Source: an uncultured Planctomycetia bacterium
Lineage (GTDB): Bacteria; Omnitrophota; Gorgyraeia; VGKH01; JBHPFN01
Length of the DNA stretch: 64,000 nucleotides
Reading direction: 5' to 3'
Assembly (NCBI GenBank): GCA_964406665.1
Contig: CAYOSQ010000001.1
Coordinates: 7,412-71,411 of the forward strand
The notes under the pieces are model-generated. The model was not told where the DNA came from. It worked only from the letters and a program-made list of their open reading frames with translations, and did not search any database. The translations under genes and the position numbers were made by a program. Positions 9,925-28,734 of this stretch are shown in pieces (within the stretch, counting starts at the first letter, position 1; each line of letters starts with the position of its first letter).

Positions 9925-12123
9925 TTATTCCGGAGGATCAGGACATTCATCCGGCCAAGATGGATCATCCGGATCAGGTATTGCTCCCGGACACGGTGGA
10001 TAATCATTTTGACACAGAACATTACAACATTCTAGCTTCTCCGGTTCATGATTTGTAGCATAGTGAGCGCAACAATCCTGACACTCTCCAACCAAGCCTA
10101 CGCATAAACTTATACATTCAGCCTGACAATAAGGCATTATTTCACCGCCTACAACACATCCTTCATCCCATCCTGCATCTGCAGGATCAAAACAGTGGGG
10201 GCATTCATCCTGCAGCTCTCCGCCGCCTTCTCCAAATTCTGCGATTTCTGAAATACAACGCTGCTGACAACCAGAGTGCGTTTCTCCTATAAAACAATCA
10301 GCAGTAGTATAATCACAATATCCATCGCCGTCGTCATCAACCCAGTCCACATCACAACATTCTCCTATAGCAACAATTTTTGCTTCTAGTTCTGTCCTGT
10401 TATATAGTAACCCATCTGGTTCATCATGTATTACGTGCCAAAGACGTCTGCGCAGTTCTTCCAGACCACACTGTCGACCGCCTTCACACTGTGGCGGCAT
10501 TTCTGCTCCTTCGCAATCCTCATCGCAAAAATCATCTGGCTGGTAACAATCTCTGCCCCAAGTATTACCCATGCATTCAACAATATTGTCTACCCAAGGA
10601 TGAACATAATAATTCTGTGGTCCTGGTAAGCTATCCCACCATGGAGTATATACTCCGTGGCTTTCTGTTTCATGCATTACTCCGAACTCGCAACCATAGA
10701 AAAATCCTTGAGCATTTTCCCGACAACAGAAACTCTGGCAACATTCAGTCAAATATCCTGGCCCAGCTCCTGTGGCAATACAGTCGGCTTTACAAGGAGG
10801 CACGTTTACTGTCCACATACAATGACGGTAGTAATTCGGGTTTGCGGCATTAGATGTAAGACATCTTCTCAAGTCCCAACAACGCCACCAGTCAGAACCC
10901 GTGTATCCTCCAGGGTTAGGTGAACAATTATTCCGTAATCGGTTTTCGGTAAAATTATCACAACGGTTATCTACACATTCATCTGTTCTATCAGGAATAC
11001 AATCATCCCAACAATCCTGCCACGCCTGTCCCTCAAGGCCATCACAGTCAATTGTACATTGATCCTCTGCCCAATCATCACAGCGATCTAAACAACGGTC
11101 TAAATCGTACACATCTTCACAATGGTCTCTACAAGGGTCTATGTTTGGTACAACACAATCTTTCTGGCAACGCAACTCTGTGTAAAGATCACAGCCGTTA
11201 GCTCCCTCAAGTCCGTTCCATATTCCACCACGAATAGAATTGGCTTCATTTATCATGCGATTAATCTCATCAACCATCTGTTCCCAGTCATCAACAATAC
11301 CAGCAACAATTATAGGACACTCTGCTGCAGCAATTTCATCTAAACATGCATCCATTTCATTTCTATTTTCATATGCAGCATCATTACAACAAGCATAAAT
11401 CGCATCTCTTCTTGCGGCAATCTCATTTCTTCTGGTTACAAGCTTATCTGCTTCTTGATCTATTTTTCTTGCCGAATCTTTAAGCTTTCTGGCTGTTACA
11501 CCAAAGCCTGCCCACCAACAAAGCTCCCACCAATCGTCGCATTCTTCTGCCTGCTCTCTTAATTCATTAGCTTCGTGTCTCATAGCATTAATTGCATCGT
11601 TAAGAGAGGCTATCTGTCCGTTAAAAGATGCCATCTTGGGATCGATTGATTTATTACACAAACATCTATCATAACAAAGGCATCCGGTCACAATCCAAAC
11701 ACCATCTATCTCTTCAAAACAATCAGGGTTAGCATCTATACATTCATTTCTACATTCCTCTTCGGCATCTGCAAGACCTATAGGTTGAAGAACAAATGAT
11801 ATTTCTTGATCTGTTCTTCCTGCAAAAACCCAATCATCGGTTATGTCCAGGGGCGCTGCAGGATCAATAGTGGGAGAGCCCAAATAAGCAGTATCGTTAT
11901 TGAGGACTCCGTAAGAATCTTTATTCGCTGCAACCATGCGGGTATCTTGATATTCATCCTGGCGCTGGGCAAAGTTTGAGGTAAACCAAAGCCAGATACG
12001 CGTAATACCGATTGCTAATGCCAAAACAACTATGAAGGAAAAAACAAAACCCAGGATTGACTGACCGCGTCTTATTCCTGGGGGTTTAAAGAAAATTTTT
12101 CTAGAGAAAGATTTATTTGACAT
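9925..12123 (-). CDS. Giant Cys-, Asp/Glu- and Trp-rich protein with an Flp-like leader (paralog B, 732 aa)
   Basis: After the leader the N-terminus is identical to paralog A for about 55 aa (GQSILGFVFSFIVVLALAIGITRIWLWFTSNFAQRQDEYQDTRMVAANKDSYG), and the DDWWELCWWAGFGVTARKLKDSA block is shared. An AAAGGGG RBS precedes the start. Confidence 0.6.
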   Translation of the reverse strand: MSNKSFSRKIFFKPPGIRRGQSILGFVFSFIVVLALAIGITRIWLWFTSNFAQRQDEYQDTRMVAANKDSYGVLNNDTAYLGSPTIDPAAPLDITDDWVFAGRTDQEISFVLQPIGLADAEEECRNECIDANPDCFEEIDGVWIVTGCLCYDRCLCNKSIDPKMASFNGQIASLNDAINAMRHEANELREQAEECDDWWELCWWAGFGVTARKLKDSARKIDQEADKLVTRRNEIAARRDAIYACCNDAAYENRNEMDACLDEIAAAECPIIVAGIVDDWEQMVDEINRMINEANSIRGGIWNGLEGANGCDLYTELRCQKDCVVPNIDPCRDHCEDVYDLDRCLDRCDDWAEDQCTIDCDGLEGQAWQDCWDDCIPDRTDECVDNRCDNFTENRLRNNCSPNPGGYTGSDWWRCWDLRRCLTSNAANPNYYRHCMWTVNVPPCKADCIATGAGPGYLTECCQSFCCRENAQGFFYGCEFGVMHETESHGVYTPWWDSLPGPQNYYVHPWVDNIVECMGNTWGRDCYQPDDFCDEDCEGAEMPPQCEGGRQCGLEELRRRLWHVIHDEPDGLLYNRTELEAKIVAIGECCDVDWVDDDGDGYCDYTTADCFIGETHSGCQQRCISEIAEFGEGGGELQDECPHCFDPADAGWDEGCVVGGEIMPYCQAECISLCVGLVGECQDCCAHYATNHEPEKLECCNVLCQNDYPPCPGAIPDPDDPSWPDECPDPPE

Positions 12124-15673: not shown

Positions 15674-15907
15674 TTATCTATTATATGTCATTTCTTCCTG
15701 AACACGTTTTAAATATCTATTATATGTCATTTCTTCCTGAACACGTTTTAAACGCGCATTCACGGAACGATATACATACCGATGTGTAATAATAATCCCG
15801 GCTGCGACTACAGCGAATAGTAATGTAAATTCGATAATACTCTGTGCTTTTCTGCATTTATTAAGCTTAATTAGTATCATTCTGTAATCATCACCCCCCC
15901 TGCACAC
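15674..15907 (-). CDS. Flp/TadE-type prepilin-like protein (A|QSIIEF) with a duplicated 13 aa C-terminal repeat. The true start is probably the internal Met near 15880.
   Basis: KCRKAQSIIEFTLLFAVVAAGIIITHRY. The C-terminus reads RVQEEMTYNRYLKRVQEEMTYNR, matching a 39 bp tandem DNA duplication. Confidence 0.45.
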   Translation of the reverse strand: MCRGGDDYRMILIKLNKCRKAQSIIEFTLLFAVVAAGIIITHRYVYRSVNARLKRVQEEMTYNRYLKRVQEEMTYNR

Positions 15908-16143
15908 TGAGTTACGGTTCTAAAATATTGATCGAATATTCCTCTTTCTCCTTCTCCACCTGTTGACTTACCTACATCAACCCAGAAATAAACTGCAATC
16001 AAAGCAATAATAGCAAAACTGACCAGTGCAACATATTCTAATAAAACCTGGCCGTTTCTTTTCTTTGATTTGCCTGAAATTCTTTTTAAAGACTTTTTAA
16101 AACTCATAATCAACTCTCCAAAAATAAAAACCGGATTACTCAA
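15877..16143 (-). CDS. Flp/TadE-type prepilin (G|QVLLEY), the first gene of the pilin array
   Basis: KKRNGQVLLEYVALVSFAIIALIAVYFWV. Confidence 0.5.
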   Translation of the reverse strand: MSNPVFIFGELIMSFKKSLKRISGKSKKRNGQVLLEYVALVSFAIIALIAVYFWVDVGKSTGGEGERGIFDQYFRTVTQCAGGVMITE

Positions 16144-16330
16144 AAACCCATAACGGCCTTTCGGTAACCCGGCTAATTTCTATCTCGCTCTTGACCCTGT
16201 GAAAGCGATAAAATATAAAAAGATGTAGCGAGCGAATCCCGTGGCTTTGCGCATCCGCCGTTTTTGATCGACGGAATTGCCGTTTCGCTGCCGTAAAATT
16301 TCCAAATTGTATTGTGCTACTTGCAAGTAA

Positions 16331-16358
16331 AATATAACACAGTATGAGCAAAAGTCAA
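16331..16358 (-). promoter_or_regulatory. Candidate sigma70-type promoter for the prepilin array (TTGACT-16 nt-TATATT on the minus strand), with a roughly 190 nt leader
   Basis: Reverse complement of 16331-16358 reads TTGACTtttgctcatactgtgtTATATT. It lies in the 247 bp gap upstream of the first pilin gene. Confidence 0.35.
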
Positions 16359-16390
16359 GACTAAATACTCATACGCAAGAAAACGCTTTT

Positions 16391-18790
16391 TTAACCGATT
16401 TTAAAGAATAATCTACTAGAATTATTATCGCGTATTCCGGATTCGTTGACTCTTCTAATGGCATACAACAAATCATTGCGCAGCGCATAATCTTTAGCAG
16501 GTAATAAAGAAACTATCAGCATATCATTAATTCTTCTTACCTTCCCCGGGAGGCTGTAAAACTGCTCTTTCATCTTAAGCAAATCCATTCCTTTGTAACT
16601 AAATGGAAAATAATGATTTACAGCATAGTTATGCAGCCTGCTAAGCAAAAACTTTATGTTTTCTTTTGCATCTGTTGTTGAACAGTTCAGCTGATAATCG
16701 TCTTTTTTCTCTTCAACTAAATCTGTTTTCTGCTTCAACATGAAATTATGCATAGTAAAAGGATCTTGTTTCTTCAACAAATCTTGATATGTTTCCTCTA
16801 AATTAGGCCAACGCATCACATATTTACGTATTATTTCTTCCGGCGAAGACTTTTCTTCCGATATATTAGTAAGTATGCCGATACGCGGCGAACTAAACTC
16901 TGAATCCCTCAAGAATATAACTCTAAACGTTACCCTATGCGTTACGCTTAACTTAGGAAAATCAACTTTAAAATTACTATAGAATATTTGTCTTCCTAAC
17001 TCTTCTATAACAAAAGTTTTGATAGCTTTAGTATCAAACGGCTGAAACGATTTTGCCTGAGCCTGCCAGGGCCAAAACCCGATAATAAAATTTCTTTTTA
17101 AGGCTGATGGTACATCTTCGCGATAGAGCTCTTCTTCCTTCGGACTTAAGGCAATTACTGATTTTATTCTTTTTTCGATGGTGTCTTCACATAAAGCTAA
17201 GAATTCAAACGTAATCTTTGAAAACTCTTTAAATCCTGAAATATTAAAAATATTGATTGGGCTGCTGTTATTAACAAATGTCCTTTCAATATAATGTTTT
17301 GTTGTGCTAATGCTGGTATTAACAACAGCCGGTATGTTACTACCTGACCAAATAGTTTTCCATTGCCCGTCGATAAAAAAAACAGAGTTATCATTTAAAA
17401 TAAACTTTATTTTATTTATTTGGGAAAATCCTTTGGCTATATGATCATGCAGGGCAAGAGCTACTTCTTTTTTTGCCATGAGATTCTGCATAAAACTCTG
17501 GAGATCTGAACTGGAAAACTTTCCTAAAGAATCGTTTAGCAACCACAGACCTTTACCTTTATACAAATCTATCTCTTTTAGATCATTTATCCCAAAGACC
17601 GAATGATAAATTAACGAATCTGTCTTTGCTGCATAGCTTTTATTTTGCAGTGGCCCGCGAAGTATTCCATCAAAAGTATTGGCATTAAATACCTCCCACT
17701 CAGCCGCCTTTAGAAAAAACGTGCCCACCGAATCTATTTCTTCATCATCACTTATCTTAACCGGAATTATAGGTTCCTCAGGGACTAAAACCTGAATTTC
17801 TTCTTCTTGCACAGGAGGCTCTATTTCTTTTTCTTCTTCAGCTTTTTCCGACGACAAGATAGCAGCTGGCTCAGGCTGCAAGTCTTCCTTCGCTTTAGGT
17901 TCAAGAATTGGCTTTTGTTCCTCTACTTCCTGTTCAGGAATAACTATATCTTCTTTTTCTTGTCTTACCTGTTCAATTTCTTCAGCTGCTTCCTGATCAA
18001 GTTCAGCCTCAGAGATTTCCTGCTCTGCGGAATCGCTCTCTGGAGTTTCCTGCAGCTGTTCTAATGCAGGATCTGGTTTTTCGATTTCTTTTGGCAAGTC
18101 TATTTCTTCTACTGGTGGCTTAACATCAGTCTCTTCAACAGGTGGCTGTTGATCTATCTGAGCTGGGGGTTCCTTGATATCTTCAGGCTCTGGTTCAGGT
18201 TCTCGTTCTGGCTCTGGCTCAGGCTCAAGCTCTGTTTCTTTAGGCTCTTCTAACTTAGGAGCATCTTCTTCTGCAATCTGCTCAATCTTTTCTTGCGAAG
18301 CAGAAACATCAGGTTTTTTAATCTCAGGCTCTTTAATTTCAGGAATCGGCGCCAAAGGCTCCTGAACTTCTAATTCTTTCTTTTCTTCTGGTTCAATAAG
18401 CGGAATGATATCTTCTGCCGGTATGGCTTTTTCGACTTTTTCTTCCTCTATATTACTGACTACTTCAGCAGGCTTAATAGGTGGGGGGGTCTCTTCCAGA
18501 GATTGAACATCTTCTTTTTTCTCAATAAGCAAGGATTGCTCATGCCTAGGCAGAATATGAGATTCCTGCTTTGCAGCAGATCTTAAGCCGTTTTGATATT
18601 TAGGCCTGCCTACGCGACTGCTTAATCCGGCTTCTTTTATAATTGAATTTATAGATGATTTGGATGCGGATATTGAGAAACGCTTATTGACCATATCAAC
18701 CAACTTCCTACATCCCAGCTTAGGATTCTGCTGTTTTTGGCTGATAATAAAATTCTTTACCTCGTCTTTAAGCTTATAGACTACGCCCAT
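16391..18790 (-). CDS. Large protein (799 aa) with an N-terminal HTH-like domain, a long acidic Pro/Glu-rich (EP)n low-complexity linker and an uncharacterised roughly 430 aa C-terminal domain
   Basis: The N-terminal KLKDEVKNFIISQKQQNPKLGCRKLVDMVNKRFSISASKSSINSIIKEAGL resembles an HTH. The central segment ELEPEPEPEREPEPEPED is embedded in an about 250 aa E/P/K-rich region. Confidence 0.5.
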   Translation of the reverse strand: MGVVYKLKDEVKNFIISQKQQNPKLGCRKLVDMVNKRFSISASKSSINSIIKEAGLSSRVGRPKYQNGLRSAAKQESHILPRHEQSLLIEKKEDVQSLEETPPPIKPAEVVSNIEEEKVEKAIPAEDIIPLIEPEEKKELEVQEPLAPIPEIKEPEIKKPDVSASQEKIEQIAEEDAPKLEEPKETELEPEPEPEREPEPEPEDIKEPPAQIDQQPPVEETDVKPPVEEIDLPKEIEKPDPALEQLQETPESDSAEQEISEAELDQEAAEEIEQVRQEKEDIVIPEQEVEEQKPILEPKAKEDLQPEPAAILSSEKAEEEKEIEPPVQEEEIQVLVPEEPIIPVKISDDEEIDSVGTFFLKAAEWEVFNANTFDGILRGPLQNKSYAAKTDSLIYHSVFGINDLKEIDLYKGKGLWLLNDSLGKFSSSDLQSFMQNLMAKKEVALALHDHIAKGFSQINKIKFILNDNSVFFIDGQWKTIWSGSNIPAVVNTSISTTKHYIERTFVNNSSPINIFNISGFKEFSKITFEFLALCEDTIEKRIKSVIALSPKEEELYREDVPSALKRNFIIGFWPWQAQAKSFQPFDTKAIKTFVIEELGRQIFYSNFKVDFPKLSVTHRVTFRVIFLRDSEFSSPRIGILTNISEEKSSPEEIIRKYVMRWPNLEETYQDLLKKQDPFTMHNFMLKQKTDLVEEKKDDYQLNCSTTDAKENIKFLLSRLHNYAVNHYFPFSYKGMDLLKMKEQFYSLPGKVRRINDMLIVSLLPAKDYALRNDLLYAIRRVNESGIRDNNSSRLFFKIG

Positions 18791-18877
18791 TGATTTTTAG
18801 ATTGGACATTTCCCTTGTATAACATATTGTTAATTCAGATGTTACGTCTTAGATTAAATCTGATTTCTAATAGGTAT

Positions 18878-18905
18878 AGTCTATCACTAATACATAAGCT
18901 GTCAA
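18878..18905 (-). promoter_or_regulatory. Candidate sigma70 promoter upstream of the 799 aa gene (TTGACA-16 nt-TAGACT on the minus strand)
   Basis: Reverse complement of 18878-18905 reads TTGACAgcttatgtattagtgaTAGACT, about 88 nt upstream of the start at 18790. Confidence 0.3.
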
Positions 18906-18953: not shown

Positions 18954-19295
18954 CTACTCGAAGCGCAGCTCATCATCAATCTGAGTCTGGGTTTGGGATA
19001 TTTTTTTTGCAGGTAACTCAACAACCGAATGCGCCTTAAGATAAATTCTGCTTATCTTACCGGGCGACATATCTTCTCTTAATCCAATAACTTTGTTTTT
19101 GCTATCTATAAAAACTGCATCCATATTAAAGCGCATAAAAAAGGTGTGGATAGAATTGCAGCGTCGGATAATAAGGGCTTCGTTTGCTTCTAGCGATTGC
19201 TTGCCCAGAAGACCTTTTGTCCTTGAAAAAAAAGTATCCGCAACTACTACCTTATCTGCTAATAGCGCGTTGCGGGTTTGATTGAAAATTTTCAT
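18954..19295 (-). CDS. DUF192 (COG1430) family protein
   Basis: 113 aa ORF. The FFSRTKGLLGKQSLEANEALIIRRCNSIHTFFMRFNMDAVFID pattern is typical of DUF192. Confidence 0.55.
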   Translation of the reverse strand: MKIFNQTRNALLADKVVVADTFFSRTKGLLGKQSLEANEALIIRRCNSIHTFFMRFNMDAVFIDSKNKVIGLREDMSPGKISRIYLKAHSVVELPAKKISQTQTQIDDELRFE

Positions 19296-19303
19296 GAAAT
19301 AAT

Positions 19304-21457
19304 TTACGGCTTGAAAACTTCTTCAGGGATAATTATGCCACGTGTCTTAAGCTCAGCATAGAACGAAGGAATATGCCCAGTAGGCTTAAACTCACCAAGC
19401 ACCTTACCTTTTTCATCGACTCCGGTCTGATAAAAAGCGAATATATCCTTTAAGCCGATGTGCATTTCATCAAGCATCCCTGTTATCTCAGTAACCTGAA
19501 GCACTTTTCTCGAACCATCTGAAAGTCTTGCGGTATGAACTATGACATGAACAGCAGATGCAATCATTTCTCTAATTGCCCTGATGGGCAACTCGATACC
19601 AGACATAAGTATCATTGAGTCCAGACGTGTTAAAACATCATGTGTGGAGTTAGCATGAACTGTGGTCATGGATCCGTCATGGCCTGTATTCATTGCCTGA
19701 AGCATATCTAACGTTTCAATCCCGCGACATTCTCCAATGAGTATTCTATCCGGACGCATTCTCAAAGAGTTTCTAAAAAGATCTCTAATAATAACTGCAC
19801 CCTTGCCTTCAATGTTCGGCGGACGCGATTCAAGCCTTACCCAATGATCCTGGGTTAATTTTAACTCTGCTGCGTCCTCGATAGTAACAATGCGTTCACT
19901 GCTGGGAACGAAAGTGGAGAGAACATTTAATACAGTTGTTTTTCCGCTTCCCGTACCTCCGGAAACTATTATGTTCTTGCGAGAAAGTACACATGCTTTT
20001 ATAAACTCACCCATGGGGCTACTTAGTGAATCTAAATCAACAAGCTCTTCGACAGTAAAACGCTCCTTGCGAAATTTTCTAATAGTTAAGGTAGGCCCTG
20101 TTAATGCCAGCGGAGGGATGATAGCATTAACGCGTGAACCGTCAGGAAGACGTGCATCAACCATGGGAACAGACTCGTCTATTCTTCTGCCTATAGGAGC
20201 AATTATACGCTCTATGGTTGTCTTTACATGAGCATTAGAGGTAAATTTCTTTGGGGTCAACTCCAGCTTTCCTTTCCGCTCAACATAGACTTCATTCCTG
20301 TTGTTAACCATAATGTCTGTTATCTCTGAATCTGAGAGTAGCGCCTCTAAAGGACCTAGGCCTAAAGCCTCATCCAATATATCTTCCACAAGAGCACGGC
20401 GCGCTTCCCCAGAAGAAATAAATTTTCCTGATTCCTCGGCAAGCAAGTTTGAAACTAAATTACCAGCCTTTTTTCTCAACTCCTCTTTGGCTGCATCAGA
20501 AAAAGCTTTTATATCGAGCTTCTTAAGATTTAACTCTGCTATAAGACGCTTATGTATACGGGTTTTTAACATAATCATCTTATCTATTTCACTAACTACA
20601 GTAGGTGAAGCTACGGGTTCAGCCATCCCAATTTTTTGCCAAAATTTATTTATCTTACCAGACGTCTTGTCTCCTTTTTCAGCAGCGCTGAAATCTTGAT
20701 GCTCAATAAATATCGAACTGTCGCTTATAAGTTTATTCGCGAAACTATCTATAGTTTTACTTACTTTGCTGCGAGCATTAACCATGCTAACCGGTAAGCC
20801 TCTGTTTACCGCCTCCATAACAACTTTGCCCTCTGATGGAATCTGGGTAATAATTTCACTTTTTAAAGCTGCCTGTATTTCATGTAAACCAATACTACTT
20901 AAACTTTCTGATCTGTTTAAAACAACTTTGATCATATTAACCGGGATAAGCATTGATTGCAGGGTATTTATTAAAACCTTAACCTGATTAATTGAAAGCA
21001 CGTCGGGGTTTGCTACTAAAAGAACAAGGTTTGCCTCATTTAAAATGCTTAACATTAAATCAGTAAAGCCACGTCCTGCATCAACAATGATATAATCATA
21101 GTTGGGTCTTAGAATATCGAACACGGCTTTTATATGAGATGGTTCAACCTGATGGGCCTGTTGCGGCCTGGCAATACCTGACAAAAAATCCATCCCGGAA
21201 GAATGCTTTGCTACAAAATCTCCAAGAACTATATCTTTTTTTGCGGCTTTAATCTCCGTAATAATATCAAGCATCGTCTTTTTAGGAGATAGGTCTAACA
21301 TTCTTCCCATGTCCCCGACTACTTGATAATCTAAATCGGCAAGAAGGGCTCTGACGTTTCTATCCTTAGTTAATGCAGCAGCTAAATTAGCCGCGAGAAA
21401 CGTTTTACCAACGCCTCCTTTTATGCTAAGAATAACGATTGTTTTTGCCAACGCCAT
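19304..21457 (-). CDS. tadZ-tadA: Fused Tad pilus ATPase: an N-terminal TadZ/CpaE-like ParA/MinD-family domain joined to a C-terminal TadA/CpaF secretion ATPase
   Basis: The N-terminal deviant Walker A ILSIKGGVGKTFLAANLAAAL (ParA/MinD-like, as in CpaE/TadZ) is followed by a C-terminal Walker A SGGTGSGKTT. The latter carries surrounding T2SS-E/CpaF-type motifs and the CpaF-like helical N-domain MIMLKTRIHKRLIAELNL. Confidence 0.8.
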   Translation of the reverse strand: MALAKTIVILSIKGGVGKTFLAANLAAALTKDRNVRALLADLDYQVVGDMGRMLDLSPKKTMLDIITEIKAAKKDIVLGDFVAKHSSGMDFLSGIARPQQAHQVEPSHIKAVFDILRPNYDYIIVDAGRGFTDLMLSILNEANLVLLVANPDVLSINQVKVLINTLQSMLIPVNMIKVVLNRSESLSSIGLHEIQAALKSEIITQIPSEGKVVMEAVNRGLPVSMVNARSKVSKTIDSFANKLISDSSIFIEHQDFSAAEKGDKTSGKINKFWQKIGMAEPVASPTVVSEIDKMIMLKTRIHKRLIAELNLKKLDIKAFSDAAKEELRKKAGNLVSNLLAEESGKFISSGEARRALVEDILDEALGLGPLEALLSDSEITDIMVNNRNEVYVERKGKLELTPKKFTSNAHVKTTIERIIAPIGRRIDESVPMVDARLPDGSRVNAIIPPLALTGPTLTIRKFRKERFTVEELVDLDSLSSPMGEFIKACVLSRKNIIVSGGTGSGKTTVLNVLSTFVPSSERIVTIEDAAELKLTQDHWVRLESRPPNIEGKGAVIIRDLFRNSLRMRPDRILIGECRGIETLDMLQAMNTGHDGSMTTVHANSTHDVLTRLDSMILMSGIELPIRAIREMIASAVHVIVHTARLSDGSRKVLQVTEITGMLDEMHIGLKDIFAFYQTGVDEKGKVLGEFKPTGHIPSFYAELKTRGIIIPEEVFKP

Positions 21458-21471
21458 ATGTTTTTGGTAGT

Positions 21472-23097
21472 TTAATTATTGTTTCTTCGAAAAGCAATTG
21501 GAACTTCTACACGAAGCTCATCTGCCCGCAACTGATAAGGAAAGGAAGGATAAGGATCCTCATTTTTTACTACCCCTAACGCAGCCTCATCCAATACCGC
21601 GTGTCCAGAAGATTCCTGGACGACAACTTCTTGCAATGAACCATTATCTGAAATAAGCAGGCTTAACCTTACAGTGCCTGACCAGCCTAATTCTTCTGCG
21701 TCTGCAGGATAGTATGCTGCGTTTAATATTTTAGTTTGCACCATCTGAACATATTCATTAAGCAGTCGCTGAACATCTTCTTGAGAAAACTCAACTGGTT
21801 TCTCTTCTTTTGACTCTTGAGCCTGAGCTTTTTTAATTTCTGAAACTATCGTTGGAGTAAGGGTGATAAATAACTCTACATTTCCTCTTTCTCCCTGACC
21901 GCCACCCATTTTAGTTTCTTTCTTTCTGAACAATGCTCCAATAATCGGAATGTCGCCTAAGAAAGCATTCTTTCTTATATCTTCTTCTAATTTTTCCTTA
22001 ATAATTCCACCGATAGCTAATGTCTGACCATTATCCAAATAAATCTCGGTTGAAATATTACGCTTGGTTAAAGGAAAGGCTTTAGCGGATGGAGCATTGG
22101 GGTCTCCGATAGTAATCGCGTCTCCGATTTCACTTACTTCAACATTAAGCCCAACATGAATTCTACCATCATCAATTGTGGGCTGAATATTAAGTTTGAT
22201 TCCATATTCCTTATACTCGATACTAGTTGAAGAAGCTCCACCTGATTGAACAGCGGTGCTGAACATCGGCTTCTCTCCGCCTACCAACAGCTCTGCTTCT
22301 TTTCCACTTGAGCATGTCAATCTCGGACGAGAAAGAATTCTCGCCTTACCTTCCTGCTCTAAGAAATCAACTGTGGCAGTAAGTGCATTTCTTGTCCAGT
22401 CGGATACATGGAATAATGCACTAAACCCTGTTACTGCGTTTGCAGTAGGGCCAGATGCTTCCAAAACAGAAAACTGTCCCGGCAGAGTAAACCCTAACGT
22501 CTTAGTTGCATCTCTATCCAATTCAAGAACCTGAACTTCTATATCAATAACGCCTTCGTCTTTAACTTGAAGGAGATCTATAGTCTGAGGGAATAATTCA
22601 CCTAATGCCAGCTCAATTAATTCTCTTTCCTCCTCGGTGGGAACATCTCCCAAAATAAGAATTCTACCTTCTTCGTGGTTAGCCTTTGTGTAAACATTAT
22701 CAAGCTTAAGCGGTTTCAACAAATTGTCAACGCGCCTTTTGGTGTTAGTCATGTCTGCAGTTAATACTCTAATCTCAAATGAGCGTTCTCCTAATTCATC
22801 CCAGACCACCAACGTTGTAGAACCTGCCCCCTTACCAGCTATGCTAACTGCATCTTCAGATACCTTGGTAATATCTGCAATCTGCGGATTACCAATAGCT
22901 ACTCTAGTAGGAGATTTTATGGGAAGAACTTTTATCTCCCCAATATATACTATTTCTTCGTTGTTTAAATATTCTTCAAAAGATATATCCTCAGCTGAGA
23001 TGATGACAGGTGAAACAAATAATAAAGAAATTAAAAAACAGCTGATGATATTTCTTCTGAAATGTTTCATTGTGTGATTCTTATATAAGCTCTTCAT
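21472..23097 (-). CDS. rcpA: Flp pilus secretin RcpA/CpaC with an additional C-terminal TonB-C-like domain
   Basis: Secretin C-domain FLGDIPIIGALFRKKE...VELFITLTPTIV. The last roughly 100 aa (AAYYPADAEELGWSGTVRLSLLISDNGSLQEVVVQESSGHAVLDEAALGVVKNEDPYPSFP...VEVPIAFR) match the TonB C-terminal domain pattern. Confidence 0.75.
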   Translation of the reverse strand: MKSLYKNHTMKHFRRNIISCFLISLLFVSPVIISAEDISFEEYLNNEEIVYIGEIKVLPIKSPTRVAIGNPQIADITKVSEDAVSIAGKGAGSTTLVVWDELGERSFEIRVLTADMTNTKRRVDNLLKPLKLDNVYTKANHEEGRILILGDVPTEEERELIELALGELFPQTIDLLQVKDEGVIDIEVQVLELDRDATKTLGFTLPGQFSVLEASGPTANAVTGFSALFHVSDWTRNALTATVDFLEQEGKARILSRPRLTCSSGKEAELLVGGEKPMFSTAVQSGGASSTSIEYKEYGIKLNIQPTIDDGRIHVGLNVEVSEIGDAITIGDPNAPSAKAFPLTKRNISTEIYLDNGQTLAIGGIIKEKLEEDIRKNAFLGDIPIIGALFRKKETKMGGGQGERGNVELFITLTPTIVSEIKKAQAQESKEEKPVEFSQEDVQRLLNEYVQMVQTKILNAAYYPADAEELGWSGTVRLSLLISDNGSLQEVVVQESSGHAVLDEAALGVVKNEDPYPSFPYQLRADELRVEVPIAFRRNNN

Positions 23098-25136: not shown

Positions 25137-26840
25137 TTATTCTACATTAGTCAACCACTGTATTCTTCCAATTGTAGCTCCAGAGCTTTCAGGGATAATA
25201 TCAAAATTTTCAAATTCTATTGCACCTTGTAAATATGGAATCTGGCCTGCATACTGTGGCACCTCTGAACGAATGAGAAGATTCCCCCGACTACCATCGC
25301 ATGCAAAATTAGCATCACAGTTTGAATAACACAATGATGACATCACTACACTGTCGCATAACCTATGACATTCGGATCTATATGCCAAATAGTTAGCAAT
25401 GCCTGGTCTTACGTTCAGCCAATGATAAATCTCCTGAAAATCTAAACACTCTTGCATGCACTGTCCGGGATTATCCAGAGCACAAAAATCTCTACACTCA
25501 TAATAACCGTCAACGGTTCCCAACTCTTCATTGTCTAAACATTTCCGAATACACTCTGTATCGCATTTGTCTACAGCACAACATTCTTGTACGCATCCAG
25601 ATTTTCCATATGCAAACTGATATTCTCTGGCACACCAACGCATACAATGATCAGGATCACACCTACGATGACATTCAGAATCAGGATGCTCTGGCTGTAA
25701 AATTTCTAAACAACTATTAAAACATTGATCTCTACACGCAATTCCCTTGCAATCTTTATCAATATTGCTGCACATTTTATAACAAGCAGAACCTTCCTCT
25801 AAATCACAATCGGCAACACAGCGAACCGAATCTGTAGGGTCATGTTCTTGTTGCAGGCAAAGCGTTTGACCAAGCAATGGTTCGTCATCAACTTGAAAAA
25901 AGTACTCAGGAGAATCATTAACACCGTTACCGGCAACATGGGCAAAGTGTTCAATAAATCCCGTCTGCAAATCCCAGGGAATATTATATTCCCCATAACA
26001 CGGTATACCGTCTCCGGCTACACAGGGAAATTCTCCTGTTTCGTCAAAGCCCTCGCCATCATCTACCCATTCTTCAAGCAACAATTCTGTTTTTCCCAAA
26101 GTAATATATATATCTTCACTTTTGTAAGAAAGATCCTCTCCCTCTGGGGAGTCATTTGGACCTTCAAGTTTATGATATTTAGCAGAATAACTTATATCAT
26201 ATTTTCCAGCAGGAAGACCTAAATTTGCAAAATAGATAATATTCTTACCTCCCATAAGCAGCTCCCCATCTTCTCCTATAGTTGCATCACCAACTTCAAT
26301 GTTCATAGGGGCAACATAGCTGTATTTTACTGAGCATTGTACTGTCTTTAATGTTGAGCCTCCTAATATAGGAACTGTTGCAGATGCAGTTAAAAGATAA
26401 ATGTAGTCTCCTGGGATAGGAGGTTTCCCTGCTCCAGAGCCGTAAGTGTCTACGCTGATTAATTGAGCAGTGTTTTTATTAATAGATTCAAGCTGTTCAG
26501 GTGTACATTCGAAGTGTCCGTGCCCGGTCCCACCAGTTTCCCCAGAACCTCTATCGGTTTCTGGCAAAGACCACTCAAACACTTCACCAATATCTTTCTG
26601 CTCTATGGGAAAATGCTTAGGGAATTCACCTGTGTCAAAGTAAACTTTTATCTCTTGGATTTTTTCTCTGGCAGCTGATTCTGCTAACCAGAGTGCTTGG
26701 GTGGTACCAATCTGTCTTTTAGTAGAAGATATTTCTCTTACCGAAGACATGAATACTCCGGTAATGATAGCACCGAAGAGAATACATAAACCTAAAGCAG
26801 TAATCAGAGCAAAGCTTTTTTTATTATTTGGTTTATTCAT
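25137..26840 (-). CDS. PilX_N-domain minor-pilin-like protein with a Cys-rich C-terminal domain (567 aa)
   Basis: The N-terminal KKSFALITALGLCILFGAIITGVFMSSVREISSTKRQIGTTQALWLAESAAREKIQEI matches the PilX N-terminal pattern. The C-terminus has ECHRRCDPDHCMRWCA and the tail LLIRSEVPQY..PYLQGAIEF...RIQWLTNV, shared with 26854-28734 and 31260-33038. Confidence 0.55.
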   Translation of the reverse strand: MNKPNNKKSFALITALGLCILFGAIITGVFMSSVREISSTKRQIGTTQALWLAESAAREKIQEIKVYFDTGEFPKHFPIEQKDIGEVFEWSLPETDRGSGETGGTGHGHFECTPEQLESINKNTAQLISVDTYGSGAGKPPIPGDYIYLLTASATVPILGGSTLKTVQCSVKYSYVAPMNIEVGDATIGEDGELLMGGKNIIYFANLGLPAGKYDISYSAKYHKLEGPNDSPEGEDLSYKSEDIYITLGKTELLLEEWVDDGEGFDETGEFPCVAGDGIPCYGEYNIPWDLQTGFIEHFAHVAGNGVNDSPEYFFQVDDEPLLGQTLCLQQEHDPTDSVRCVADCDLEEGSACYKMCSNIDKDCKGIACRDQCFNSCLEILQPEHPDSECHRRCDPDHCMRWCAREYQFAYGKSGCVQECCAVDKCDTECIRKCLDNEELGTVDGYYECRDFCALDNPGQCMQECLDFQEIYHWLNVRPGIANYLAYRSECHRLCDSVVMSSLCYSNCDANFACDGSRGNLLIRSEVPQYAGQIPYLQGAIEFENFDIIPESSGATIGRIQWLTNVE

Positions 26841-26853
26841 TAATTGCCACTAT

Positions 26854-28734
26854 TTAATTTACGTTAGTCAACCATTGAATTCTTCTAACCGTAGCCCCGG
26901 ATTCTTCCGGAACAATATCAAAGCTTTCAAACTGAACAGAACCCTGTAAATAAGGTAACGCATAGTGGTATTGTGGCACCTCTGAACGAATTAAAAGATT
27001 ACCTCTAAAATCATCACATAGAAAATAAGAATCACAGTTAGAAAAACAAGTCTTTTTACTAGATAAATTTTTGCATAGCCTATGACATTCAGACATAAAG
27101 CCTGCTGCTTCGGGAATGCCAGGCCTAACATTCTCTCCATTATAGTCTCTCTGAAAATTCAAAGCGCAATCATCCACGCACTCTCCGGGATTGTCTATAG
27201 CACAAAAATCTTTGCACTCTGTATATCCCTCTATAGCTTGTTTTTGCTTAAATGCACATTGAAGCAAACAATCTTGGTCACAGGCCGTTTTGCCACAACA
27301 TAATTCTACGCACTGAGAATGTATATATGCTGTTTCATACTCAAAGGCACACCAACGCATACAATGAACCGGGTCACACCTACGGTGACATTCAGAGTTT
27401 GGATGTTCTTTCTGAAAAATTTCTACGCAACCTTTATAGCATGGTCCGCCACAACCAGAACCTTCACAATCGTCATCAAGCTGTTCGCACATTTTGCTAC
27501 ACAAAGAATCCTCTTCTAGATCACAATCATCTTGATAAAATTCAAGCCTCGAAGGATCTAAAATATCATACAGACCTAAAAAGCTTTCAACCAAAGGATC
27601 ATCATCAACTTCAAAGTGATACTGCAGATCTTCGTTAACCCCGTTATCAGCAATATGGGTAAAGTTTTCAGCAAATCCTGTTTGTAAATCCCAGGGAATA
27701 TTATATTCGCCGTAACATGACATGTCATCTCCAGCAACACAAGGAAGTTCTCCGGCTTCATCAAAACCGTCACCGTCATCTACCCACTCTTGCAGAAGAA
27801 TTTCGCTTTTACCTAATCTAATGTAAAAATTCTCTTCTTGAAAAGGGCTAACTTTTTCTGCTTCCCGTAAACTACGGCCAATATGCTGATTATATTTTGC
27901 AACATAGCTCAAATCGTATCTACCTGCAGGCAGATCTAAATCTTTATAATAAATAATATTATCGACTCCCATCTTTATACGTCCATCTTCTCCTATAGTT
28001 GCATCACCAACTTCAATATTCATAGGAGCAACATAGCTGTATTTTACTGAGCATTGTACTGTCTTTGATGTTGAGCCTCCTAATATAGGAACTGTTGCAG
28101 ATGCGGTTAAAAGATAAATGTAGTCTCCTGGAATAGGAGGATCTCCTGTTCCAGAACCATAAAGATTGACGCTGATTAATTGAGCACTGGTGGCTATGAC
28201 TGGAATATCTAGAGCATCAACAATCTTTTCAATCTTTGCCTTCTGGGAAGATGCGCTTTTTGGCTGACTAGCGCCACCAGAGGCGGGAGGCAGACCTTTT
28301 GGCTGACTAGCGCCACCAGAGGCGGGAGGCAGACCTTTTGGCTGACTACCACCTCCTGAATCAGGCTCATGTCCTGAGGGATCTTCATGACTCCCGTCTT
28401 GATCATCTGGCATAAAACCCCACTCATACTCTTTACCTATATCTTTATCAGGGTCTACGGGGAAGTGTTTAGGGAATTCACCGATGTCAAAGTATGTTTT
28501 TATCTCTTGGATTTTTTCTCTGGCAGCTGATTCTGCTAACCAGAGTGCTTGGGTGGTACCAATCTGTCTTTTAGTAGAAGATATTTCTCTTACCGAAGAC
28601 ATGAATACTCCGGTAATGATAGCACCGAAGAGAATACATAAACCTAAAGCAGTAATCAGAGCAAAGCTTTTTTTATTATTTGGTTTTTTTATTACTTTCA
28701 CCCCACCTACTCCTGCAAAGAATTGATTGGCCAA
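26854..28734 (-). CDS. PilX_N-domain Cys-rich protein, tandem paralog (626 aa as tracked). The probable true start is the GTG near 28701 (V of GVKVIKKPNNKK), preceded by a GGAG RBS.
   Basis: The first roughly 62 aa after KKPNNKK are identical to the 567 aa paralog. It contains a 3x GGASQPKGLPPAS repeat, and its C-terminus has ECHRRCDPVHCMRWCA ... RIQWLTNVN. Confidence 0.55.
   Translation of the reverse strand: MANQFFAGVGGVKVIKKPNNKKSFALITALGLCILFGAIITGVFMSSVREISSTKRQIGTTQALWLAESAAREKIQEIKTYFDIGEFPKHFPVDPDKDIGKEYEWGFMPDDQDGSHEDPSGHEPDSGGGSQPKGLPPASGGASQPKGLPPASGGASQPKSASSQKAKIEKIVDALDIPVIATSAQLISVNLYGSGTGDPPIPGDYIYLLTASATVPILGGSTSKTVQCSVKYSYVAPMNIEVGDATIGEDGRIKMGVDNIIYYKDLDLPAGRYDLSYVAKYNQHIGRSLREAEKVSPFQEENFYIRLGKSEILLQEWVDDGDGFDEAGELPCVAGDDMSCYGEYNIPWDLQTGFAENFTHIADNGVNEDLQYHFEVDDDPLVESFLGLYDILDPSRLEFYQDDCDLEEDSLCSKMCEQLDDDCEGSGCGGPCYKGCVEIFQKEHPNSECHRRCDPVHCMRWCAFEYETAYIHSQCVELCCGKTACDQDCLLQCAFKQKQAIEGYTECKDFCAIDNPGECVDDCALNFQRDYNGENVRPGIPEAAGFMSECHRLCKNLSSKKTCFSNCDSYFLCDDFRGNLLIRSEVPQYHYALPYLQGSVQFESFDIVPEESGATVRRIQWLTNVN

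Follow-up and report, generated by a model that had tools for sequence, protein, structure and literature searches.

The 64,000-nucleotide stretch of DNA analysed here, termed the window, comes from an uncultured bacterium placed in the Omnitrophota (assembly GCA_964406665.1, contig CAYOSQ010000001.1, positions 7,412 to 71,411 of the forward strand). Within a gene cluster for a Tad (Flp) pilus it carries an open reading frame (ORF) of 799 amino acids plus stop, at 16391–18790 on the minus strand, whose product is termed protein X. The frame runs uninterrupted from ATG to stop, and its product opens with MGVVYKLKDEVKNF. A reading of the same interval on the plus strand was ruled out, as the translation is riddled with stops. 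The gene is considered real because the closest homologue of the protein has an E value of 2.4e-148 and because the identical protein is found on 11 metagenome contigs, which come from several samples and show the same context in all. As an earlier note on this DNA had described, the protein has three parts: an N-terminal helix-turn-helix (HTH) domain of three helices and 65 amino acids (aa 1–65; 18596–18790), a 286-aa linker of low complexity that is rich in Glu, Pro and Lys and includes an (EP)n run (aa ~66–350; 17741–18595), and a C-terminal globular domain of ~450 aa (16394–17740), all encoded on the minus strand. For the C-terminal domain, AlphaFold2 (AF2) models were obtained with predicted local distance difference test (pLDDT) scores of 84 and 93.

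In the direction of transcription, the genes 5′ of X encode, in order, a SurA-like rotamase, RcpC, a secretin with a TonB_C domain, a TadZ-TadA-like fusion and a DUF192 protein. The fusion is a 717-aa ATPase that joins ParA/CbiA and T2SSE domains (19304–21457, minus strand). Protein X had been placed by the earlier note between the Tad ATPase and the pilin array; the position holds, but the two genes are not adjacent, as the 113-aa DUF192 gene (18954–19295) lies between the ATPase and X. On the 3′ side are seven to eight small ORFs with N-termini that resemble Flp/class III signals, as well as large Cys-rich proteins and a TadE/G-like protein. These neighbouring genes, unlike X, match canonical Tad families in Pfam and NCBIfam.

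Protein X belongs to a large unannotated family that is a near-constant member of the Omnitrophota Tad locus. Among 1.84 billion cluster representatives searched with a profile, 1007 matched at E ≤ 1e-3, 642 of them at E ≤ 1e-30; nearly all of the 150 matches listed span the whole profile. Every full-length member starts with MGV(V/I)(Y/H)KLK and has the same three-part layout. The C-terminal domain searched alone gave 20 proteins labelled 'hypothetical', with E values from 2.4e-148 to 4e-20, the closest being labelled Candidatus Omnitrophota. Residue conservation is given below as counts over 150 family members, and the Pfam and NCBIfam scans of the family cover 84 members. When protein X was searched singly against Pfam and NCBIfam, no model reached its cut-off; these searches and one of PDB sequences yielded weak HTH matches only. 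Pfam and NCBIfam gave no match to TadZ, TadA, TadB/C, RcpA/B/C, TadD-G, TadV or Flp in X or in the 84 members, in agreement with the earlier statement that canonical tad genes include no counterpart. PADLOC and PHROGs searches returned no matches for X, hence no link to a defence system or a phage. Profile searches of PDB sequences with alignments of 21, 150 and 28 sequences yielded nothing usable, and a Foldseek search of viral structures (BFVD) was uninformative.

The location of the gene is phylogenetically conserved. In eight metagenome loci with homologues 22–52% identical, X follows the TadZ-TadA and DUF192 genes and immediately precedes the pilin array; one or two opposite-strand genes intervene upstream of X in two of the eight. 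A further 29 loci came from scanning a single genome for each GTDB species; almost all are titled Omnitrophota, and a few have other labels of metagenome-assembled genomes (MAGs). Annotation by script extended over 39 loci, 36 of them distinct. In ~25 distinct loci the ATPase gene lies directly 5′ of X in the same orientation, and in almost all of these DUF192 stands beside the ATPase; pilin-like ORFs are found 3′ of X in 28 of the 36. The adjoining array holds 5–12 paralogous pilin genes, and the Tad clusters of relatives also carry TadB/C. In these related loci the gene mostly lies with tad genes, a co-occurrence that the earlier note had proposed to check. There are departures from this order. 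In two loci (L014 and L020) the X gene alone is inverted with respect to the tad cluster and divergent from the pilin array, and in two others (L035 and L038) it stands at the head of the cluster, before the rotamase-RcpC-secretin genes. Most remaining loci are cut by contig ends; in L028 there are no tad genes in the 5.7 kb upstream of X, and the contig ends ~0.4 kb after it.

X and the ATPase have diverged together. Their pairwise distances are correlated over 18 loci (Mantel r=0.62, permutation p=2e-4), and X evolves much faster, with distances of 0.30–0.77 vs 0.03–0.45 for the ATPase. Identity of X to the query showed no significant correlation with ATPase identity, whereas the all-pairs Mantel test did correlate. 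The MAG JBDRFF01 has two X homologues on different contigs (L011 and L022), with a pilin-like array after each, a sign that this organism may have two Tad-type pilin clusters. It is almost certain that X is a real gene and a conserved resident of the tad locus. X is interpreted as a part of the Tad (Flp) pilus locus of Omnitrophota type that has been passed on by vertical descent.

Within the family, conservation is highest in the HTH domain. An AF2 model of P0118, a member with a short linker (147-sequence alignment, pLDDT 92.8), shows helices at residues 9–21, 27–38 and 44–54. Near-invariant residues are K6, R28, S43-K44-S45, N48, K52 and G61-R62. Pfam matches among the family members scanned are to HTH_32 (67), HTH_33 (48) and HTH_Tnp_Tc3_2 (45), with a best E value of 3.3e-6, and all are sub-threshold. 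NCBIfam matches are to the N-terminal parts of the IS630 (61/84) and IS481 (32/84) models, below the curated cut-offs. The assignment as an HTH domain is based on three short helices in a high-confidence model together with the recurrent sub-threshold HTH matches. Protein X is probably DNA-binding.

The C-terminal domain resembles transposases of the IS4/Tn5 type. AF2 models of this domain from the window protein (pLDDT 84.3) and from P0118 were compared by Foldseek with 350,542 PDB chains, and Tn5 transposase ranks first for both models (1muh, 3ecp, 4dm0, 1mus, 1mm8, 1b7e). At the sequence level, the NCBIfam model transpos_IS4_1 matches 14 of the 84 members, always at profile positions ~240–296 of 332, which is the YREK/C1 region. 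The highest-scoring member reaches 24.9 bits (E 9.9e-6). This was calibrated with genuine Tn5 transposase, which scores 25.3 bits on the same model in the same region (E 7.4e-6); InsL of IS186 cross-matches other IS4 subgroup models solely in that signature region. By these calibration scores, the family is about as similar to IS4 proper as the IS4 subgroups are to one another.

The signature of protein X, 'ILTN...Y..RW' at aa 639–661, is the strand-'LTN'-helix segment matched by transpos_IS4_1. Profile comparison by hhalign with the Tn5 family, the IS4 InsG family and IS186 InsL finds the same segment, with P values of 0.048, 0.08 and 2.4e-4, respectively; the IS4 InsG homologue set was too redundant for a strong profile. 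In global mode, hhalign against the Tn5 family was unsuccessful, and the local mode aligned the signature segment only. Invariant or near-invariant positions of the C-terminal domain are G356, D474, N642, Y657, W661-P662 and N782-E783. Within the signature region N642, Y657 and W661 are conserved and R660 is present in 98/150; after RW there are an inserted Pro-Asn and a variable Glu.

Several observations weigh against a transposase origin. The Foldseek alignments with Tn5 extend over ~450 columns but have E values of 5e-3 to 8e-3, probabilities of 0.54–0.66 and a template modelling (TM) score of ~0.2. The hhalign probabilities are at most 44%, the NCBIfam IS4_1 scores are far below the 115-bit cut-off, and there is no Pfam DDE match. 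From the conserved Asp to the 'LTN' strand, the secondary structures follow an order that does not fit neatly with the RNase H fold of Tn5. Taken singly, none of the fold or profile matches is significant by conventional standards. From the combined evidence, it is nevertheless likely that protein X was derived from an IS4/Tn5-type transposase.

The residues expected of a DDE transposase (Asp-Asp-Glu) are only partly present. The only nearly invariant acidic residues of the C-terminal domain are D474 (149/150) and E783 (140/150); position 467 is D in 125/150, N782 is found in 148/150 and N642 in 147/150. D474 stands at the end of a strand in the context 'h-h-h-D-G/A-Q', a setting that recalls the first of the catalytic Asp residues in IS4 enzymes. 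The best candidate for the second is position 549, by a weak collinear alignment with D188 of Tn5; residues there among the 150 members include D (62), G (49), N (24) and S (10), and the window protein has Ser. For the Glu, 'RW-x-I-E' compares with 'RWPNLEE', where E is found in 79/150 (position 665) and 88/150 at the two positions. A D-D-[E/D] set is kept in 33/150 members only, and the query has D-S-E. Since the second Asp and the Glu are variable, the canonical DDE site is not maintained.

Could X be an active IS4-family insertion sequence (IS) that landed by chance between the ATPase and the pilins and has nothing to do with the pilus? The transposase-type HTH, the IS4 signature and the top-ranking fold match to Tn5 speak for this, as do the two copies in JBDRFF01 and the two loci where X alone is inverted. 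The same position is occupied, however, in about 30 divergent loci, where X co-diverges with the ATPase, and both copies in the two-copy MAG precede pilin arrays. The identical protein on the 11 contigs is always in one context. No inverted repeats flank the X ORF, none bracket X or the pilin array, and no inverted copy of the upstream box described below is found at the 3′ end of X. With the DDE candidates not conserved in addition, a chance insertion of an active element is highly improbable. The X gene is single copy and fixed in position; X is probably transposase-derived but not mobile. The earlier note had held that a C-terminal match to a family such as a transposase would point to an inserted mobile gene; the likeness to IS4/Tn5 was found, and mobility was contradicted by the fixed position, the co-divergence, the lack of repeats and the unconserved DDE triad.

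The near invariance of D474, N642 and N782-E783 means that an active or ligand-binding site could persist, which also counts against the explanation favoured below. The C-terminal domain might have remained functional as a nuclease or recombinase, with D474 and N782/E783 as one conceivable non-canonical site. It would then act on DNA within or close to the locus, e.g. by rearranging or nicking the pilin region, in analogy to Piv, a pilin invertase related to transposases. The counts for these residues favour such an enzyme, and X adjoins an array of pilin paralogues, has boxes as direct repeats and inside the ORF (see below), and has been flipped in orientation twice. Against it are the absence of inverted repeats bracketing X or the pilins, the grouping of the 11 contigs as one arrangement, and the lack of conservation of the canonical second Asp and Glu; this explanation is rated as unlikely. 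There is correspondingly a small chance that the C-terminal domain is still catalytically active in a non-canonical way. It is similarly doubtful that X is an active DNA-processing enzyme dedicated to its locus, with a remodelled Tn5-like core built around D474/N642/N782-E783. The recognition sites of such an enzyme would be the AATGTCCAATCTG boxes within and near the X gene, where it would cut, nick or synapse DNA. If this were true, a programmed DNA transaction would be coupled to the making of the Tad pilus in these predatory or parasitic nanobacteria; it could, for instance, switch pilus expression or process DNA that the pilus has moved.

The linker has a strongly biased composition. In the window protein it is 27% Glu and 14% Pro, has a net charge of -60, and contains ELEPEPEPEREPEPEPED at aa ~187–204. 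Linkers of 7 to 449 aa occur in the family (median 94), and few are as long as the one in the window protein. The short linker of P0118 (residues 61–75) is of low confidence in the AF2 model. Composition and length variability suggest that the linker is disordered. No signal peptide or hydrophobic/membrane segment was found in X, the maximum Kyte-Doolittle mean over 19 residues being 0.76. Protein X is cytoplasmic.

The earlier note had offered a regulator or a scaffold as the role of the protein, with the linker as a spacer across the periplasm or cell envelope. The regulator is plausible in view of the three-helix HTH and of a box at the promoter of the gene itself, and the spacer did not stand. 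As a scaffold, X would be an envelope- or periplasm-spanning part of the pilus with (Glu-Pro)n as a rigid TonB-like rod. The (EP)n run does resemble the proline-rich spacer of TonB, with a local EPEPEP composition like that of the (Glu-Pro)n/(Lys-Pro)n spacers of TonB-type proteins, and the secretin of the locus bears a TonB_C domain. X differs from these proteins in that it has no membrane anchor and no TonB_C, its flanking domains are of cytoplasmic type and its N-terminus is an HTH, the C-terminal domain matches neither TonB_C nor another envelope protein, and a linker with so unconstrained a length is no fixed-length ruler. A scaffold of this kind is hardly tenable.

The X gene has its own promoter, as the earlier note had proposed. 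This is a sigma-70-type sequence, TTGACA-16-TAGACT with a TG before the -10, at 18878–18905 on the minus strand, and the -35/-10 pair is conserved in five relatives. When the upstream regions of X from five relatives are aligned, AAATGTCCAA is invariant. In the window this belongs to a conserved box, AATGTCCAATCT(A), at 18798–18810 on the minus strand, which starts 20 nt before the ATG and just after a -10 hexamer; the extended 13-nt consensus across the family is AATGTCCAATCTG. In the loci compared, the box starts 3–15 nt past a -10-like hexamer. Of 29 loci, 24 have the exact 9-mer AATGTCCAA in forward orientation no more than 160 nt before the X start, and 28 have it there if up to one mismatch is allowed. 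Elsewhere, on both strands of the other 321 kb, there are 5 exact copies of the 9-mer where 2.4 are expected. No second exact copy of the 12-mer AATGTCCAATCT is found within the 64-kb window. In a metagenome-wide scan with the 17-mer AATGTCCAATCTGGAGG, at least 53 of the 121 matches listed directly precede an X-type N-terminus; the other listed matches are mostly GC-rich and apparently unrelated, with a few X-type or AT-rich cases missed by the filter.

Additional copies of the box provide information on the level at which it functions. Five loci (L018, L020, L021, L024 and L036) have a further copy ~10 nt upstream of the TTGACA -35 hexamer. As copies at this position would not be transcribed from that promoter, the box is interpreted as a DNA-level site. 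Exact or near-exact 13-mers are also found inside the X ORF of L003, L005, L009, L011 and L012, at about +850 to +1170 nt. These occur at two protein positions, one of them in a different reading frame, and thus the constraint is on the nucleotides and not on the peptide. In the window X ORF there is only a copy with two mismatches (18500–18511). The box as a coding feature, either an upstream open reading frame (uORF) 'MSNL' or a motif 'NVQS', was ruled out, since the same nucleotides appear in different frames and protein positions. The ATG within the box opens a short out-of-frame uORF, MSNLKINGRSL* (18788–18809, minus strand), that overlaps the X start codon. The window X gene has no obvious Shine-Dalgarno sequence, and in many orthologues GGAGG directly follows the box.

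Alternatively, the box may be an RNA element of the 5′ untranslated region that affects translation or mRNA stability and is recognized by another factor, with the target of X elsewhere, e.g. at the palindrome near the pilin promoter. That the box is always on the sense strand and abuts a GGAGG Shine-Dalgarno sequence in many loci fits an element acting at the RNA level, and an inverted partial copy could pair with the box in L002, L011, L013 and L020. A target elsewhere is suggested by the palindrome GAAAGCGCTTTC, whose centre lies ~60 nt before the pilin start site and which stays with the pilin promoter, not with X, when X is flipped. Copies upstream of the -35 hexamer are difficult to reconcile with an RNA element, and the HTH recognition helix is nearly invariant, as is the box. 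An RNA element with X acting at another site is thus considered a minority explanation. The box is strongly and specifically associated with the X gene, and X, rather than another factor, is predicted to recognize it. On balance, the prediction that X binds the 13-nt box and autoregulates is slightly favoured. The box is a candidate operator or a candidate relic of a binding site at a transposon end.

The pilin array has a promoter of its own, TTGACT-16-TATATT at 16331–16358 on the minus strand, which is conserved in relatives. A palindrome, AAAAGCGTTTTC, lies at 16379–16390 on the minus strand, right after the X stop and ~20 nt upstream of the pilin -35. In relatives, among them L011, L013, L016, L021, L029 and L032, it has the form GAAA[AG]CG[CT]TTTC, and in about 20 loci it is found at or just after the X stop; the ~20-nt spacing from the -35 is that of the aligned close relatives. 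In L020, where X is flipped, the sole copy is 438 nt upstream of the X start, on the side that faces the pilin array. The leader of the array contains a c-di-GMP-I (cyclic di-GMP) riboswitch aptamer at 16160–16291 on the minus strand, which scores 38.4 bits vs a gathering score of 35; L002 and L003 carry the same riboswitch in the corresponding position. The promoter and leader that the earlier note had predicted after X are thereby confirmed, with the leader now assigned to a riboswitch class. After the aptamer follows a terminator-like hairpin with a U-run (~16121–16174; -31.4 kcal/mol, z -4.95) that shares the AGCCGGGUUAC strand with it. This sharing of a strand suggests that the leader may be a c-di-GMP ON switch.

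The explanation favoured for these findings, with a probability of roughly one in two, is that protein X is an immobile descendant of an IS4/Tn5-type transposase kept as a component of the Tad locus, where it serves as a domesticated-transposase regulator. A role as regulator of the pilus locus is more likely than one as a mobile gene or as an envelope-spanning scaffold. In IS elements, the left end commonly holds both the transposase promoter and a transposase binding site. The transposase-type HTH of X may bind the asymmetric box, which on this view is what remains of the left transposon end, and binding there would repress transcription of X itself. The decayed catalytic core may have become an oligomerization module or one that binds a partner or ligand, and the acidic Glu/Pro linker would be a disordered tether of unconstrained length. 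More weakly inferred is that X controls expression of the Tad pilus or the pilins through this DNA binding. The 13-nt box is absent from the pilin promoter, so that direct control of the pilins via the same site is unsupported, and that promoter carries a different element, the palindrome. Regulation of pilus or pilin expression by X is therefore put forward tentatively. The pilin array may be gated separately by its own promoter, the upstream palindrome and the c-di-GMP-I ON-type riboswitch.

The family thus gains a proposed origin in IS4/Tn5-type transposases and a testable cis-element. A regulatory layout of the locus emerges from the box, the palindrome that accompanies the pilin promoter and the c-di-GMP riboswitch in the leader. 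If confirmed, protein X would be a rare example of a bacterial DDE transposase that was domesticated to serve its host and then retained in a broad array of Omnitrophota lineages, and one protein with one 13-bp box would offer a tractable entry into gene regulation of an uncultivated phylum.

Other features of the cluster deserve mention. Two fusions are unusual for tad clusters: the ATPase at 19304–21457 (minus strand), with a ParA/CbiA (TadZ-like) N-terminus and a T2SSE (TadA/CpaF) ATPase, and the secretin with a C-terminal TonB_C domain at 21472–23097 (minus strand). Both recur in all related loci. Large Cys-rich proteins are encoded on the minus strand at 25137–26840, 26854–28734 and also 9925–12123. 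The adjacent pair shares a nearly identical N-terminus of ~80 aa with a prepilin-like hydrophobic segment (KKPNNKKSFALITALGLCILFG...) and then diverges, as if by a recent duplication or as a variable cassette. The 626-aa Cys-rich copy has short tandem repeats (GGASQPKGLPPAS). In the pilin array, the ORF at 15674–15907 (minus strand) ends in a direct duplication (…LKRVQEEMTYNRYLKRVQEEMTYNR) and overlaps the ORF at 15877–16143; gene starts within the array are ambiguous.

With respect to known systems, X lies inside a tad-type cluster with RcpC, a secretin, TadZ-TadA, Flp-like pilins and a TadE/G-like protein, as in canonical tad/flp loci. These loci differ in having no gene at the position of X, and X has no similarity to TadZ, TadA, RcpA/B/C, TadB/C, TadD-G or TadV. 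Among the Omnitrophota, the Tad pilus is viewed as an organelle central to attachment or predation (PMC10066038). That study analysed TadB/C, RcpA, TadZ and Flp and does not mention the X gene; the words 'hypothetical', 'transposase' and 'riboswitch' never appear in its text (PMC10066038).

A transposase-related protein encoded beside pilin genes has a parallel in Piv of Moraxella, a pilin invertase related to the IS110 (DEDD) transposases that acts on inverted repeats bracketing pilin segments. Piv comes from another transposase family; X has no IS110 match in NCBIfam and no bracketing inverted repeats.

Tn5 and IS4 transposases appear to share with X an N-terminal helical DNA-binding domain followed by an alpha/beta core with a long beta-hairpin insertion and an 'LLTN...Y..RW' helix. 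The conserved Asp in an 'h-h-h-D-G/A-x' strand, as the first catalytic Asp, is likewise shared. X differs in scoring below the family cut-offs, in its variable second Asp and Glu, in the change of 'RW-x-I-E' to 'RWPNLEE', and in being a single-copy, vertically inherited gene at a fixed locus without terminal inverted repeats. It also has an extra helical subdomain of ~110 residues, a C-terminal beta/alpha module with an invariant 'RVNES', and the long, presumably disordered linker. Compared with a functional IS4/Tn5 transposase, X lacks a score at the model cut-off, the D-D-E triad, and terminal repeats with variable insertion sites.

Domesticated transposases provide the closest comparison. 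Those of bacteria are mainly non-DDE, e.g. the RAYTs and the TnpB-derived TldR, and we know of no described bacterial domesticated transposase of the DDE (IS4) type. A limited literature search found no bacterial IS4-type domestication and no description of the X gene. In eukaryotes, domesticated transposases that act as DNA-binding regulators or host factors are well documented, such as the piggyBac-derived PGBD5 (PMC3902484). As in other domesticated transposases, in X the overall fold and the DNA-binding domain are apparently kept, the catalytic residues have decayed, and the gene is immobile and long conserved. A cognate short DNA motif beside the gene is also typical, and the X box is a candidate for such a motif. 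X differs from these proteins in being tied to a pilus gene cluster, which is a new link.

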